A DNA stretch of 42,154 bases, from IMG/VR virus record IMGVR_UViG_3300045988_021923; one strand, 5' to 3'. The notes below the pieces were generated by a model. The model had not been told where the DNA came from and made no database searches. It worked only from the letters and a program-made list of their open reading frames with translations. Source of the stretch: a virus. Below, in pieces: positions 22,277 through 34,117 of this stretch (positions are counted from its first letter, which is position 1; each line of letters opens with the position of its first letter). The position numbers and the translations under genes are program-made.

Positions 22277-22797
22277 TATTTCGCCTCCAATGCCTTTTCC
22301 GCCGCCTCATGGGTCAGGAAAATGGTCTTGCCGATTTCCTCTGGATAAAACTCCCATGCTTCGCCGTTTTCGTCAGTCCCCTTCAGGAATACAGTTTTAT
22401 AGCCGTCATACCATCCGATGCGGTCTGCGTCATCCAATGAAATTTCCCTGATCGGTTGCTCTACATAGTCTTTGTCAATTCCCCAGAATAAAACTTGATC
22501 CCCAAAGACAACCTCGAGCCAGTCCTTGCACGGTAGAACCTCCAATCGCCCGTCCTTGTCTGCTTTAGCCAACTGGCGGAACCTGTCCAGTGCCTCACTG
22601 GCTTTTTGGTTTCCAATTAAATCCTGAAGAAACACCACAAAAGATTGAAACGCTTCTGGCGTCATGCCCGTGTCTAAATACTGACGCAGCAGCGGGCAGT
22701 GCGCCGCCGGGACCGCCGTGCAGAACCCGCCGACCGCAGTACAGTTCCCGTTATCCTCATGCCTAAAGCGGCAACGCAGGCAATTAACATTTCCCAT
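22276..22797 (-). CDS. Hypothetical protein with N-terminal Cys cluster (173 aa)
   Basis: Trimmed to ATG 22797 (MGNVNCLRCRFRHEDNGNC). Confidence 0.65.
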   Translation of the reverse strand: MGNVNCLRCRFRHEDNGNCTAVGGFCTAVPAAHCPLLRQYLDTGMTPEAFQSFVVFLQDLIGNQKASEALDRFRQLAKADKDGRLEVLPCKDWLEVVFGDQVLFWGIDKDYVEQPIREISLDDADRIGWYDGYKTVFLKGTDENGEAWEFYPEEIGKTIFLTHEAAEKALEAK

Positions 22798-23029
22798 CAC
22801 ATTTCCTCCTCCACCGGCATCCGTTACAGGCCCCCTCATGGGCCAGCGTGTAATTTCCGCATTTCAGGCACAGTTCGTTCCGCAGCGCGTCAATCTCTTT
22901 CGCCCGCGCTTCGATCAAGTCAGCGGCTCCCGCCAGATCGTCGCCCAGCGTGATCGGCGTTTCCCACTCATTTGCCTGCGCCCATTCCGCGTGCTCACGC
23001 AGCGCATTTACGAGGTTTGTATCTCTCAT
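22784..23029 (-). CDS. Hypothetical protein with C-terminal Cys cluster (81 aa)
   Basis: ATGA overlap with the methyltransferase stop. Confidence 0.6.
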   Translation of the reverse strand: MRDTNLVNALREHAEWAQANEWETPITLGDDLAGAADLIEARAKEIDALRNELCLKCGNYTLAHEGACNGCRWRRKCDGKC

Positions 23030-24318
23030 AATTCATCCCCCAATCTCCAATCATCGTCCCGCACCTGAAACGCATCCCCCAACTGCACCGTCTCCGGGTA
23101 ATTGTGCTGTGTGGTTTGGATGGCGTACTTGTCGATTTCGGTTGCATAGTAGGCGGTGATCGCCGCGCCCAGCTTGTCCAGCGCGATATGGCCGCAGCTC
23201 ATGCCGTCGTACATGGAAAGCACTTCCACCGGTTCCTCCGTCAGCCCGGTAAAGTGGCTCATGATATGCGCGATCACATCCACCGTCCAGCCGTTGCCCA
23301 GCATCTTGTAGGCTTGGCTGTTGCTAACCGGGAAAACATACTCCTCCGGCACGGTCTGGAGGTGTTTACATTCCGTCACGGTCAGCTTGCGAATGATGTA
23401 AAATCCGTCTGCCAGTTTAATGGGGTATGTCTTTCCTTTGATGGTAATCCGCCCGCCGTGAACCTCGTAAACTGGGATTTCTTTTCCGCCTGCCGCCTTA
23501 ATTACAAACCGCCCTTTTCCGTCCGGGATAACGGGCACGGCATAAAGCCCGGTTTTTGCCCCTACGCCGCCACCCTGTCCGCACAGGGTTACGCTTTTTG
23601 CGTCCGGGCTGTAAACACGGTATTGCTGGCTGTCAAAAGTCTGGTTCTTTGCGTCGTTCTCAATGGTTCCGATCCTCACCGGCTCCACCAGAACGTTATA
23701 CGGGACGCCCTTGTGGGTGTTCGCCGTCACGCAGGCACTTTTTTCCTGCGTTGCGTCGTGGAAATAATCGAAATCAAAATGGTTCCGCCCGTCCTTGGTT
23801 TCGCGCACCATATAATCCATTTCTTTTTCAGTCAGCGGCTTAATGGCAACAGGTTCCGCCGCACCATTCCGCTGGTGTCTGGAAACCATGTTGTCCGCCG
23901 TGGTTCCGCCGGTTGTGGACAGCAGAGCATACCCTTTTTCTTTCCAGCAGACACCACTTTCCAGAATGTCGCGCAGGAGGATCCCACGGTCCACCGGCTG
24001 CTCCACTGCCACTTGGCTGTATGTGCCGTCCGGGTTTCGTCTGCCCACCCAATACAGGCGCTGGCGGTTTTGTGCGCTCACCAGGGCGCTGTTAATCAGG
24101 ACAGGCTCCACGCCTAACTCCGCCGTGATCTGCGCCCGGATAGCGGGCGACATACTTTTATTGTTTTCGTACAGGAAAAAATCCGGCTGGTATTTATCCC
24201 GTGCAATACGGTAATTTAAGAACAGTTCCCAGCCGATGCCGCTGGCCTCTGTCTCGCGGTTCTTCGTCTGAGCGATGCTCCAATGTGTGCAGGGACTTCC
24301 GCCGATCAATAGTTTCAT
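23026..24318 (-). CDS. DNA (cytosine-5) methyltransferase with permuted motif order IV-X then I-III (430 aa)
   Basis: ATG 24318 (ATGA overlap, GGAGGA SD). Motifs in order: GGSPCTHWS (IV), LYENNKSM (VI), QNRQRLYW (VIII), RKLTVTECKHLQTVP (IX), GNGWTVDVIAHI (X), then LSMYDGMSCG (I), ATEIDKYA (II), LGDAFQV (III). Confidence 0.8.
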   Translation of the reverse strand: MKLLIGGSPCTHWSIAQTKNRETEASGIGWELFLNYRIARDKYQPDFFLYENNKSMSPAIRAQITAELGVEPVLINSALVSAQNRQRLYWVGRRNPDGTYSQVAVEQPVDRGILLRDILESGVCWKEKGYALLSTTGGTTADNMVSRHQRNGAAEPVAIKPLTEKEMDYMVRETKDGRNHFDFDYFHDATQEKSACVTANTHKGVPYNVLVEPVRIGTIENDAKNQTFDSQQYRVYSPDAKSVTLCGQGGGVGAKTGLYAVPVIPDGKGRFVIKAAGGKEIPVYEVHGGRITIKGKTYPIKLADGFYIIRKLTVTECKHLQTVPEEYVFPVSNSQAYKMLGNGWTVDVIAHIMSHFTGLTEEPVEVLSMYDGMSCGHIALDKLGAAITAYYATEIDKYAIQTTQHNYPETVQLGDAFQVRDDDWRLGDEL

Positions 24319-24662
24319 ACGTCCTCCGCTTCCGCAAGCCAGAACGCCCTTCGGCACTCCGAGCATGTGTGCCCTGCGCACTCTGGCACCTTTTTCCCGA
24401 AAATGTGACAGGGATTGATGTATAGACATTCCGCCTGGTCAACATTCGCCTCCGGAAACAGCTTCAAGAACTCGCTCTGCCTGGTTTTTATGGGGTGCTC
24501 CTTCGCCCACTTTTCGGCAATTTCCACCGCCTCCTCCGGGTGGGTTTTTCTCCAGACTGTGCAGGTTTCAAACACGCTAAGCCTTTTCCTGATCTCGCAG
24601 TTGCAGCACTCACAGTTGCACATTCTGCTCAATGTTTTCAAAAACTCCACAGCATCCATCAT
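24315..24662 (-). CDS. Cys-rich hypothetical protein (115 aa)
   Basis: CNCECCNCE and CAGHTCSEC clusters. ATGA overlaps at both ends. Confidence 0.6.
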   Translation of the reverse strand: MMDAVEFLKTLSRMCNCECCNCEIRKRLSVFETCTVWRKTHPEEAVEIAEKWAKEHPIKTRQSEFLKLFPEANVDQAECLYINPCHIFGKKVPECAGHTCSECRRAFWLAEAEDV

Positions 24663-30641: not shown

Positions 30642-30685
30642 AGAAATGCACAACGTTTTTTTCTTCAATTTGTGAGGTTTTGCCA

Positions 30686-31465
30686 ATGGCATTATTTGAA
30701 GCCCAAATTCGCAAATATATAGAAGAAAATTTTAGTGCGCGTGAAAAAGAAATTTTGGCACAAGAACAAAATTTAAAAACCCGGCTTAATAAAAGCCGGG
30801 AGTACAGAATTATGCTGAGAGATTATCAGCAGGAATTGAAAAACCGGGAAAAGAAAATCATTGAAAAAGAAGCAGAATTAAATGAGCGAGAACAAAATCT
30901 TGTGTCCCAAATAAAAGAAAACTTAATCAAGCCTTTATCCGACGAAAAAGGAAAACTTGAACAGCAAATAAAAAAAGCAAAACTTGAATTGTCTGGATAC
31001 CAAAACATGGAATACGAAATTATTGATTGGGTTTCCAGAATGGAAAAGAAAGAAAGCGCGATATTTCAAGAGCTAATTGGCGATGCTCAAAAGTATGACA
31101 ATAATCAAATTTCTATTGACGGTTATGATTTTGAGACATTTGTTGCAAAACTTCTTACCGCCAATCAATTTACAAACGTAGAGGTTACGGCCAAAAGCGG
31201 AGATTACGGGGCCGACGTTCTTGCAAACAAAGACGGAATAAAATATGTCTTTCAATGCAAATATTATTCTAATCAAGTTGGAATTGAAGCTGTCCAGCAA
31301 GTGTATTCTGCAAAAGATTTTTATAACGCTCATGTCGCGATTGTCATTACAAACAGTGTTTTTACAAAAGCAGCTAAAGTATTAGCCAATGAACTAAATG
31401 TTGTTTTGTGGGATTGCGAAAAACTGAACGAGCTAAAAAAGGTTGATGAAAAAAGCGGTGGATAA
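30686..31465 (+). CDS. Coiled-coil protein with C-terminal Mrr_cat-type restriction endonuclease domain (259 aa)
   Basis: ATG 30686 (GTGAGG SD). The N-terminal ~125 aa are heptad-rich (EKEILAQEQNLKTRLNK...). The C-terminus GYDFETFVAKLL...SGDYGADVLANKDGIKYVFQCKYY...IVITNSVFTKAAKVLA matches the Mrr catalytic domain D...(Q/E)xK. Confidence 0.75.
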   Translation: MALFEAQIRKYIEENFSAREKEILAQEQNLKTRLNKSREYRIMLRDYQQELKNREKKIIEKEAELNEREQNLVSQIKENLIKPLSDEKGKLEQQIKKAKLELSGYQNMEYEIIDWVSRMEKKESAIFQELIGDAQKYDNNQISIDGYDFETFVAKLLTANQFTNVEVTAKSGDYGADVLANKDGIKYVFQCKYYSNQVGIEAVQQVYSAKDFYNAHVAIVITNSVFTKAAKVLANELNVVLWDCEKLNELKKVDEKSGG

Positions 31466-32136: not shown

Positions 32137-32378
32137 CAATTAAAGGAAACTCAGCCCCGCCGCCTCTGCAACAACAGCGGGGCCGAGTGGCAAGCCTGTG
32201 TGGGGCTGGCTTGCTGCAAATAGAGCATAGCAAAATTGGGTTGGGTACGGCAATCGTCAAACGTGGGAACCCCTTGTTTACTTTATGCAACCTTAGCGGA
32301 CACACTAAAGTAATTTACAGTCTACACTATGATATTTGCCTACCCAAGTTGTGTTCAACAGTGTGGGGAGGTATTTTT

Positions 32379-32813
32379 TTGACTATTCAGGAAATGTGTA
32401 AGGAACGAAAAACTTCTTTGGGGATTACTTCGCAGGAAATAGCAGACCAATCAGGTGTTCCACTATCCACTGTGAACAATTTCTTCGCTCACGCCTCTAA
32501 GTCTCCACCGCTTTATACCGCTGCGCCAATTTGCGCGGTTTTGGGCGTGTCACTGGATGCGTATTTTGGCATTGGAGACCATTTAACCGCAACGGAAGAA
32601 ACCTTGCAGGCGGAAAAGGTCGGTCTGGAAAAGCGCTTATCCAACAAGCGGGAGACGATTGATGTGCAGAATCATACCATCAATGTGATGGAAAAGGGTC
32701 TGCGGATTCGCAACTGCGTGATTTTGGTTATGGGCGTAGCAATCGTCCTGTTGCTGTGCTGGTGCGTATATGTGGATATGCACGCGCTGAATATCGGTTT
32801 TTGGAGGGAATAA
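32379..32813 (+). CDS. XRE-family HTH protein with C-terminal transmembrane anchor (144 aa)
   Basis: TTG 32379 (GGGGAGG SD) or ATG 32394. ITSQEIADQSGVPLSTVNNFF, a coiled segment, then CVILVMGVAIVLLLCWCVYV. The stop overlaps the recombinase start (TAATG). Confidence 0.6.
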   Translation: MTIQEMCKERKTSLGITSQEIADQSGVPLSTVNNFFAHASKSPPLYTAAPICAVLGVSLDAYFGIGDHLTATEETLQAEKVGLEKRLSNKRETIDVQNHTINVMEKGLRIRNCVILVMGVAIVLLLCWCVYVDMHALNIGFWRE

Positions 32814-34117
32814 TGAGAGCTGCGTTATATATCCGCGTGTCCACCGAAGAACAGGCCAAGCAAGGTCTATCCCTCCCGGAACAGAGGGACGCTTTATCAA
32901 AATATGCTGACGCAAACAACATGGAAGTCATCGGCGTATACGAGGATGCCGGTATCAGCGCCCGAAAGCCGTACAAAAAGCGTCCGGCACTATTGCGCTT
33001 ACTTGAAGATTGCAATGCCGGGAAGATTGATGTAATTCTGTTTATCAAACTGGATAGATGGTTCCGCAATGTTTCCGGGTATTATGCAGTGCAAGACCAA
33101 TTAGACAAGTGCGGCGTCAAGTGGCAGGCAACACAAGAGGACTACGAAACGCGCACAGCATCCGGGCGGCTAAAAGTCAACATTATGTTATCTGTGGCGC
33201 AAGACGAAGCTGACCGCACCAGCGAACGAATTAAATTTATCAATGATGGCAAGCGAGCAAAAGGCCAGCCTACTAACGCAAAGGCTCCGCTGGGCCTTGT
33301 GGTAAAAGACCGGCAATATCAAATAGACCCTGATACCGCCGAAGCCGCAAAGGATATGTTTTCCGCATTTATCCGTCTGCGGGGGATTTTGCCCCTAAGA
33401 AAATATATGGCCGCTACGTGGGGAATAAATCGTTCGTATAGCAAATATGTTGGTCTTATCCAAAATCGGTTGTACATCGGAGAAGTATACGGTATTGCCG
33501 ATGCCTGCCCTGCACTAATCAACAAAGACGAATTTACACTCGCAAACGAATTGCTCCAACATCGGAGCCAGCGCGGGGCCAGCGCTTCACCTGACCGCAC
33601 ATATTTGTTTTCTGGCCTGTTGCATTGCCGCGAATGTGGAACCTCGATGCAATCGGAGACCGCGAAGAAAATATATACTTACTACCGCTGCCGAAAGCGT
33701 ATGCTGGATAATTCCGCTTGCCCTCATAATCGCCGTATCCGAGAAGATGTGTTGGAAGAATATTTACTAAGGGAAATCGAACATATCGCTACGGCCTACC
33801 ACGGAAAATACGAAAAAGCAGAAAAAAAGCCTGCCATAGCGGCAGACAAAATTAAACGAAAGATGCAGAAGCTAAAAGAACTTTACCTTGCAGACCTGAT
33901 TGATATTGAGGAATATCGAAAGGATTACGAGGATATGAAACGTAGCCTTGAAATTATGGAAGCGTCTCAGCCGCCTGCATTTGATGTCGGGGCGTTAAAG
34001 TCAGGGCTTGCGGAATATCCACACATGACGAAAGAACAAAAGAAAGGCTTTTGGACACGCACAATCCAGCGCATTGATGCTGATAATGACGGTGCGTTTT
34101 TTGTAACGCCTCGTTAG
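32813..34117 (+). CDS. Large serine recombinase (phage integrase), 434 aa
   Basis: MRAALYIRVSTEEQ...GLSLPEQ resolvase catalytic N-terminus, recombinase domain, and zinc ribbon CRECGTSM...YYRCRKR. Confidence 0.9.
   Translation: MRAALYIRVSTEEQAKQGLSLPEQRDALSKYADANNMEVIGVYEDAGISARKPYKKRPALLRLLEDCNAGKIDVILFIKLDRWFRNVSGYYAVQDQLDKCGVKWQATQEDYETRTASGRLKVNIMLSVAQDEADRTSERIKFINDGKRAKGQPTNAKAPLGLVVKDRQYQIDPDTAEAAKDMFSAFIRLRGILPLRKYMAATWGINRSYSKYVGLIQNRLYIGEVYGIADACPALINKDEFTLANELLQHRSQRGASASPDRTYLFSGLLHCRECGTSMQSETAKKIYTYYRCRKRMLDNSACPHNRRIREDVLEEYLLREIEHIATAYHGKYEKAEKKPAIAADKIKRKMQKLKELYLADLIDIEEYRKDYEDMKRSLEIMEASQPPAFDVGALKSGLAEYPHMTKEQKKGFWTRTIQRIDADNDGAFFVTPR

Follow-up and report, generated by a model that had tools for sequence, protein, structure and literature searches.

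Can a cytosine-5 (C5) DNA methyltransferase begin in the middle of its catalytic domain and still be an enzyme? The question is raised by an open reading frame (ORF) of 430 codons on the minus strand of IMG/VR virus record IMGVR_UViG_3300045988_021923, a stretch of 42,154 nt which was analysed whole and is called the window here. We consider it very probable that its product, the query of all comparisons below, is a functional, naturally circularly permuted C5 DNA methyltransferase of a temperate gut phage. Along the chain motifs IV, VI and VIII come first, followed by a variable region, motifs IX and X, and only then motifs I, II and III, as a preliminary description of the locus had claimed. 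The Pfam family PF00145 matched the protein with 99 bits (cut-off 22; E=4.6e-28), the match being split over three stretches, and in a phmmer search of the PDB the segments of DNMT3C (8tci) aligned in swapped order, with query residues 362-406 corresponding to chain residues 4-50 (motifs I-II), 3-92 to 75-169 (IV-VIII) and 313-354 to 232-275 (IX-X). The plant DRM chains 4onq (E=9.5e-7) and 7l4c aligned in the same search as one collinear stretch over query residues 331-428, because DRM also runs from motif X into motifs I-III. No other Pfam domain reached its cut-off in the methylase, the only other match being PF19944 (DUF6406; 16.3 vs 26.9 bits, E=0.011).

We then asked where the chain is broken. 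The preliminary description had argued that the C-terminus stops and the N-terminus starts at one and the same point between motifs III and IV, and this was borne out when the C-terminal 90 and N-terminal 60 residues were rejoined: the composite was collinear with canonical relatives over motifs I, II, III, IV and VI and left about 4 surplus residues at the seam. Judged from this alignment, the permutation is nearly unit-length, with its break exactly between motifs III and IV. The non-permuted close homologues that had been called for also exist. An exhaustive search with HMMER through 1.84 billion representatives of 50%-identity clusters returned 8,101 matches, 1,686 of them below 1e-30, and when the three query segments (IV-VIII, IX-X and I-III) were located in each of the best 150 representatives, 66 proved to be full-length permuted, 39 canonical and 2 tandem fusions, the rest being fragments. 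The canonical sisters are 53-63% identical to the query over the matched stretches and share GGSPCTxWSIAQ, YENNKSM, KMLGNGWTV and LS[LM][FY]DGMxCG with it.

The same architecture was found in bacterial genomes. Scanning one genome per GTDB species gave 551 relatives, and at the best 80 of these loci the permuted order was present in 77 of the 81 methylase ORFs. In each permuted ORF K[IL]L[IL]GGSPC followed immediately on a Met, and the stop fell 0-29 residues past the last aligned residue of the I-III block, with the exception of one locus (L017, 185 residues). The hosts of these best 80 loci were mostly Oscillospiraceae (Oscillibacter, Dysosmobacter, Flavonifractor, Pseudoflavonifractor, Colidextribacter, Acutalibacter and Anaerotruncus), followed by Lachnospiraceae, Christensenellaceae and other Clostridia; cultured isolates were among them, and the permuted order was seen in the isolate genomes of Flavonifractor sp. 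An92, Pseudoflavonifractor sp. 524-17, Anaerotruncus colihominis JM4-15 and Acutalibacter caecimuris. By the evidence of these sequences, the permutation is a family-wide trait in prophages of gut Clostridia and is not peculiar to this phage. A III/IV break had been expected to be unusual, which holds relative to the literature but not in sequence space, where it is not rare and marks a large conserved family. Two relatives carry C-terminal additions: in P0075 (686 aa) the permuted C5 methylase continues into an N4/N6 methylase domain (PF01555), and P0122 (658 aa) has a weak Mom-like domain (PF25680, E=1.8e-4).

To see how such a chain might fold we built an AlphaFold2 model from an alignment of 41 sequences, which had a mean predicted local distance difference test (pLDDT) score of 77 and a predicted template modelling score (pTM) of 0.77. 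The pLDDT exceeded 90 in both halves of the catalytic domain, residues 363-420 forming a beta-alpha-beta-alpha-beta-alpha arrangement that includes the C-terminal beta1-alphaA-beta2-alphaB-beta3 unit, and confidence was low only at residues 122-136 and 148-208 of the variable region. Foldseek, which aligns in an order-dependent manner, ranked M.HhaI first among PDB structures (E=5e-12; template modelling score 0.60, normalised to HhaI), and DNMT3, DRM and M.HaeIII came next. In the mechanism that we propose, the chain would start with strand beta-4 and the catalytic Pro-Cys loop of motif IV and continue with motifs VI and VIII, then the target-recognition region, then motifs IX and X, whereupon a linker of 10 residues would lead into the S-adenosylmethionine (AdoMet)-binding half (I-III), which would refold beside motifs IV and X to give the usual Rossmann-type domain. 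Engineered permutants of M.HaeIII, M.MpeI and M.SssI whose new N-terminus lies between motifs II and III or between III and IV are active, and such a topology is therefore feasible (PMC5944983).

The same chain order could also mean that activity requires a dimer, domain-swapped or obligate, in which motifs I-III of one chain complete motifs IV-X of another, or in which the protomers divide DNA binding and catalysis between them as proposed for the class-beta amino-methyltransferases. DNMT3 enzymes, which are the closest solved relatives by sequence, work as oligomers, and the linker between motifs X and I is short. Furthermore, the linear order (IV-VIII, target-recognition domain (TRD), X, I-III) is that of the class-beta enzymes, reported to be dimeric (PMC7544214), the chemistry being that of a C5 enzyme with a Cys nucleophile. 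On the other hand, the model of a single chain is confident as judged by its pTM, the N- and C-termini of canonical C5 enzymes are adjacent and engineered unit-length permutants are active (PMC5944983), and we regard the dimer as unlikely.

In the phage, cytosines of the phage or prophage DNA would be methylated within a short target, which the enzyme's recognition module (or modules) would define, and the methylation would protect that DNA from host restriction. Self-methylation at C5 for the evasion of host restriction appears to be the likeliest role, given the family and the genomic context. It is very unlikely that the fold has been turned to another substrate or chemistry, be it RNA (as in Dnmt2), single-stranded DNA only or another modification at C5; for this one may cite the ENN variant of motif VI, the family-specific beta module before motif IX and the Mom-like domain of P0122, but the best sequence and structure matches are the DNA C5-methyltransferases DNMT3, M.HhaI and M.HaeIII, the recognition module matches the DNA-recognition loops of M.HhaI, if weakly, motifs IV, VI and VIII are all present, and the setting is typical of phage orphan DNA methylases.

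We next considered whether the gene might be a decaying remnant, in which the 3' part of one tandem methylase gene had become fused to the 5' part of the next and the product was inactive, the gene simply awaiting deletion. This is just how such a remnant would look, tandem genes and fusions do occur in the family, and one copy (L035) is without the catalytic Cys. However, identical ends are kept in more than 60 clusters (50% identity) and at 77 genome loci, and the catalytic and cofactor residues do not vary: G7, P9, C10, E51, N52, E316, Q321, N342, D371, G372, E394 and G414 were invariant in an alignment of 41 diverse permuted members, in which R85, R87 and D415 were at least 90% conserved. 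Median ratios of nonsynonymous to synonymous substitution (dN/dS) were 0.055 for IV-VIII, 0.107 for IX-X, 0.117 for the displaced I-III block and 0.18 for the variable region (pairwise Nei-Gojobori estimates from 441 gene pairs, which are non-independent, although the signal is uniform), giving 0.05-0.12 for the core. The family is thus under purifying selection in every core segment, the displaced I-III block included. The translational coupling to both neighbouring genes through ATGA overlaps is also intact in the window, and a remnant is extremely unlikely. An assembly or gene-calling artefact, such as a repeat joined wrongly or a start misplaced so that motifs I-III would in truth belong upstream, has next to no probability and is already refuted by independent assemblies: a longer in-frame ORF of 467 aa does exist from 24429, but the extension overlaps the upstream gene, adds no motif I or any other methyltransferase motif and has a start used by no homologue, about 45 contigs (up to 44 kb) from several sources carry the identical 430-aa protein, proteins of 97-100% identity occur on dozens of independent contigs of up to 44-85 kb (JGI, ENA, Logan and NCBI), and isolate genomes show the same order. 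Taken together, the conserved ends, invariant residues, low dN/dS and independent contigs exclude a pseudogene or an assembly artefact for practical purposes.

How the permutation arose is recorded in the family itself. The preliminary description had proposed a tandem duplication followed by loss of both outer ends, and two natural tandem fusions of order I-X-I-X, P0125 (962 aa) and P0251 (618 aa), fit this route. The X-to-I junction of P0125, GNGWTVDVIAHFFTGLS...(27 aa)...VDVLSVFDGMSCG (VIAHFFTGLS...VDVLSVFDGMSCG), resembles that of the query, GNGWTVDVIAHIMSHFTGLTEEPVEVLSMYDGMSCG, and the rejoined query aligned across the P0125 junction into motifs IV-VI of the second unit. The beta-strand module which precedes motif IX in the permuted proteins was found in the canonical unit of P0125 too. 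A DNMT3-like canonical phage methylase may have been duplicated or fused in tandem and may then have lost both outer ends; as the permutation-by-duplication model has it, a fusion of this kind trimmed of its first I-III block and its last IV-X block has exactly the architecture observed. In a neighbour-joining tree of the re-ordered cores (51 permuted and 37 canonical; built on distances, midpoint-rooted and without support values) a single split placed all 37 canonical proteins on one side and 50 of the 51 permuted proteins on the other. The tree is compatible with one permutation event, and the permuted family most likely arose once, as far as the sequences allow a judgement. The surviving canonical sisters and tandem-fusion intermediates make up a rare natural record of permutation by duplication. 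It may be added that one contig of a Clostridia metagenome-assembled genome (L013) carries two permuted methylase genes in tandem, with ORFs from 2998 and 4231. We had also taken inserts of 320-380 aa between motifs III and IV of canonical relatives as a sign of a permissive junction, which was rejected when Pfam identified them as inteins (Hint, Intein_splicing and LAGLIDADG) at the Pro-Cys of motif IV. Such inteins at the catalytic Pro-Cys were seen in the canonical P0142, P0165 and P0183 and in the permuted P0238, P0252, P0144 and P0140, and only about 8 residues separate their site (e.g. MKRILIGGSP|CFVA...) from the point at which the chain is permuted.

Several points weigh against a functional permuted methylase of single origin. 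The score of the NCBIfam model TIGR00675 was 88.7 bits, below its cut-off of 100.65, because the permutation splits the match. Motif VI reads ENN instead of ENV, which is probably tolerated since the variant is common to the canonical sister proteins. Reassembly of the AdoMet pocket beside Cys10 would follow from the confidence of the model and the known adjacency of the termini (PMC5944983) and not from a measured superposition. The enzyme is probably active as an orphan phage methylase, and its 5-methylcytosine (5mC) activity and target site are predictions. In one copy, L035 of Oscillibacter sp. 1-3 (NZ_KE159707.1, ORF from 2995), a Tyr stands in place of the catalytic Cys (GGSPYTHW); it is likely to be a prophage copy that has lost its activity, which means that some copies in the family decay. 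Finally, the single origin was deduced from a midpoint-rooted neighbour-joining tree that carries no support values. With these points counted in, the fullest form of our proposal, namely that this is the first recognised natural C5 family broken inside the Rossmann domain, of single origin via surviving tandem fusions, fully active and widespread in gut-Clostridia prophages, seems to us to have a little better than an even chance of being right. If so, it would overturn the published generalisation that nature permutes C5 enzymes only in the variable region, and would offer a clean natural test of whether a beta-type chain order alone forces dimeric action.

The variable region gave some indication of how the target may be chosen. 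Its module at residues 230-261 had a single PDB match, which was weak (E=0.14), to the recognition-loop segment 237-267 of M.HhaI. GCGC specificity was considered on this account and dropped, since the match is weak and GCGC is not avoided in the window (observed/expected ratio, O/E, 0.86). Among 120 relatives listed (77-100% identical to the query where matched), 115 were full-length permuted, with one HhaI-like module in 73, two in 35 and three in 6, the modules being bounded by repeated TGLYAVPV ends; the window methylase has one. A second, different type of module is suspected at residues 190-215. P0060, P0055, P0049 and P0002, when compared with the window at 23536-23631, showed a highly similar backbone with clean gain or loss of one to three modules. 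Such changes suggest a rapid, recombination-driven turnover of specificity with shifting or multiple targets, and modular recognition regions of this kind may supply new 5mC specificities in the arms races of gut phages and their hosts.

Palindromes were strongly avoided across the whole window (1-42154). CTAG did not occur against 34 expected, and six-base palindromes numbered 280 against 606 expected, with a median O/E of 0.35. Hexamers with an O/E below 0.5 made up 65% of the palindromic but 1.6% of the non-palindromic ones, and eight hexamers, including GAATTC, GGGCCC and ATGCAT, were absent, while GCGC, CCGG, AGCT and TCGA were not avoided. It seems that the phage both avoids restriction sites and relies on methylation.

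The genes around the methylase are those of a temperate siphovirus-like phage or prophage, comprising terminase, portal, major and minor head proteins, tape measure, RusA, SSB, a Sak-like annealing protein, an anti-repressor-like regulator and a serine integrase. The methylase lies in the replication/recombination module between small ORFs without a family match. Its gene runs from an ATG at 24316-24318 to a TGA stop at 23026-23028, and the minus strand around the start reads GCGGAGGACGTATGAAA. The support claimed earlier for this start was present, in the ATGA overlap and the GGAGGA, though the spacing of the Shine-Dalgarno sequence is short (3 nt). ATGA overlaps tie the start to the TGA of the upstream ORF (24315-24662, minus strand) and the stop to the ATG of the downstream ORF (22784-23029, minus strand), so that the gene is tightly packed at both ends. 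These coupled neighbours, of 115 aa and 81 aa, are both Cys-rich, the upstream one containing CNCECCNCE, and neither matched Pfam or PHROG. No match to a restriction-endonuclease family was found in either flanking gene or in the next gene downstream; no cognate endonuclease gene is thus adjacent, which makes the methylase an orphan. The only nuclease-like gene of the window encodes a 261-aa Mrr_cat protein (PF04471, E=3.4e-28; 30680-31462, plus strand) and lies 6.4 kb off on the other strand, in the lysogeny module beside a helix-turn-helix regulator (32187-32810) and the serine integrase (32756-34114); a possible role is that of an exclusion or modification-dependent nuclease encoded by the prophage. 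The features of the methylase gene are collected in Table 1.

Table 1. Features of the permuted methylase gene, with positions in the window and residues (res) of the protein; conservation refers to the 41 permuted relatives.
Feature	Position	Strand	Basis
Complete ORF, permuted cytosine-5 DNA methyltransferase, 430 aa + stop	23026..24318	-	PF00145 E=4.6e-28
Ribosome-binding region, GGAGGA 3 nt before ATG	24319..24330	-	Read from sequence; relatives in bacterial genomes share the Met
Motif IV (KLLIGGSPCTHWS), res 2-14, catalytic Pro9-Cys10, extreme N-terminus	24277..24315	-	G7, P9, C10 invariant
Motif VI (DFFLYENNKSM), res 46-56, ENN variant of ENV	24151..24183	-	E51, N52 invariant
Motif VIII (INSALVSAQNRQRLYW; QxRxR), res 75-90, QNRQR	24049..24096	-	R85, R87 at least 90% conserved
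Variable target-recognition region, res 96-296	23431..24033	-	dN/dS 0.18; model confidence low at 122-136, 148-208
M.HhaI-like target-recognition module (SQQYRVYSPDAKSVTLCGQGGGVGAKTGLYAV), res 230-261	23536..23631	-	Weak PDB match, E=0.14
Family-specific beta-strand module PVYEV..G.ITIKGK.YPIKL.DG.Y, before motif IX	23398..23478	-	Alignment and model
Motif IX (IIRKLTVTECKHLQTVPEEY), res 308-327	23338..23397	-	E316, Q321, P324 invariant
Motif X (QAYKMLGNGWTVDVIAHIM), res 335-353, GNG	23260..23316	-	N342, W344 invariant
Linker SHFTGLTEEP, res 354-363, motif X to motif I (old C- to old N-terminus)	23230..23259	-	Resembles P0125 X-to-I junction
Motif I (VEVLSMYDGMSCGHIAL), res 364-380, DNMT3-like AdoMet loop	23179..23229	-	Aligns with DNMT3C 4-50; S368, D371, G372 invariant; pLDDT >90
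Motif II (AYYATEIDKYA), res 389-399, acidic E394	23122..23154	-	E394 invariant
Motif III (VQLGDAFQV), res 411-419	23062..23088	-	G414 invariant, D415 at least 90% conserved
C-terminal tail RDDDWRLGDEL, 11 residues, res 420-430	23029..23061	-	Ends where canonical relatives go on into motif IV

Compared with what has been described, the III/IV break is a new natural topology variant of the C5 methyltransferases. Albert et al. (2018) listed M.BssHII, M.Alw26I, M2.Eco31I, M.Esp3I and M2.BsaI, together with 22 more enzymes from REBASE, as natural permuted prokaryotic C5 enzymes, remarked that patterns of the III/IV and II/III type seemingly do not occur in nature, and concluded from their REBASE survey that natural permutations always keep the two domains intact (PMC5944983). 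When we ran the motif-I pattern of that survey, it failed on the query and on all 41 permuted relatives, in which motif I reads LSMYDG(M/I)xxG, and the permuted family would therefore have been invisible to it. A topology classification of REBASE enzymes from 2025 recognised no topologies for 5mC enzymes other than class C (canonical) and class F (M2.Eco31I type), and Woodcock et al. (2020) spoke of 'one alternative permutation' of the 5mC motif order as the only one known in prokaryotes, class beta being defined by a chain that goes from motif IV through the TRD to motif I (PMC7544214). Our own full-text literature searches, whose scope left out REBASE itself and some older papers, returned no description of a natural III/IV C5 permutant.

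That the known permutations have other breakpoints, as the preliminary description had stated, agrees with the published survey (PMC5944983) and with our DRM alignment. Enzymes of the M.BssHII type ('type H'/zeta, class F) are likewise natural permutants of the C5 fold in which motif X is joined to motif I (PMC5944983; bioRxiv 10.1101/2023.12.13.571470). Their new N-terminus is in the variable region, so that the motifs run IX-X-I-VIII and the large domain is contiguous save for helix X, whereas the query is broken inside the Rossmann domain, between motifs III and IV, runs IV-X-I-III and keeps its variable region (residues 96-296) internal. Plant DRM1 and DRM2 are likewise permuted DNMT3-like C5 enzymes, in which X followed by I-III is collinear with query residues 331-428. 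Their order is VI-X and then I-V, with the break between motifs V and VI, and as the query has motifs IV and V at its N-terminus, its permutation must have been an event independent of theirs. A DNMT3-like ancestor, duplicated and then permuted, is the proposed source of DRM (PMC3227630) and of the query family alike. The DRM enzymes are permuted at another point and eukaryotic (PMC3227630); they further differ in their N-terminal UBA domains and their role in RNA-directed methylation, while the query belongs to a phage or prophage and has motif IV at its N-terminus.

The class-beta amino-methyltransferases (M.PvuII, M.RsrI, CcrM and the MT-A70/METTL3 type) have the same linear order of IV, TRD and I (PMC7544214; PMC4738411), but they methylate exocyclic N6 or N4 and carry a (D/S)PP(Y/F) motif IV, whereas the query has the GGSPC Pro-Cys nucleophile, motifs of the ENV and QxRxR types and C5 homology, PF00145 being the only Pfam family found. 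Among phages, the canonical DNMT3-like C5 methyltransferases of Pelagibacter phage HTVC134P (gp5), Bacteroides phage BT528P1 (Dmt) and E. coli phage phi92 (gp043) share the orphan setting and the motifs LSLFDGMSCG, INSALVSAQ(N/S)R(K/R)R(I/L)YW and KMLGNGWTV, to which closer sisters add GGSPCTxWS and YENNKSM; they differ in running in order from I through X. Full-length tblastn matches in cultured phages were considered as permuted homologues and rejected, since HTVC134P gp5 and BT528P1 Dmt proved canonical on translation, the search having joined the pieces regardless of their order. A junction-spanning query, on the other hand, gave a single collinear X-to-I piece in at least three phage records, MT835543.1, MT836645.1 and OR777945.1 (the only three among the 60 of 315 records that were listed). 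The C5 methyltransferases of Bacillus phages SPR, phi3T, rho11s and H2 are multispecific orphan enzymes with several tandem recognition modules in the variable region, and in this resemble the close relatives of the query with their one, two or three modules, but the Bacillus phage order is canonical and the query has one module.

Annotation that relies on motif order or patterns misses or under-scores such genes, as the NCBIfam score has already illustrated. PHROG 17284, of 'unknown function', matched query residues 188-385 (E=7.8e-67) and covers the part from the TRD through X to I, and the 558-residue permuted C5 methylase of Phage nd4, which has two recognition modules (OR777945.1, WRQ08028.1; L003 1993-3669), is labelled 'hypothetical protein' in GenBank. 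The IMG label of these proteins is 'DNA (cytosine-5)-methyltransferase 3A' (DNMT3A).

The closest likeness in topology is to the engineered type B/C permutants of M.HaeIII, M.MpeI and M.SssI, which are of the same kind, with the old termini joined, and are active (PMC5944983); those are laboratory constructs, while the query family is natural, abundant and under selection. The interest of this is chiefly for specialists in methyltransferases and protein evolution and is limited beyond them. For a class of enzymes that is the textbook case of fixed motif order, a large selected III/IV family would change the picture, in that a topology made and found active in the laboratory would also be used by nature, as a third independent permutation of the C5 fold beside M.BssHII and DRM.

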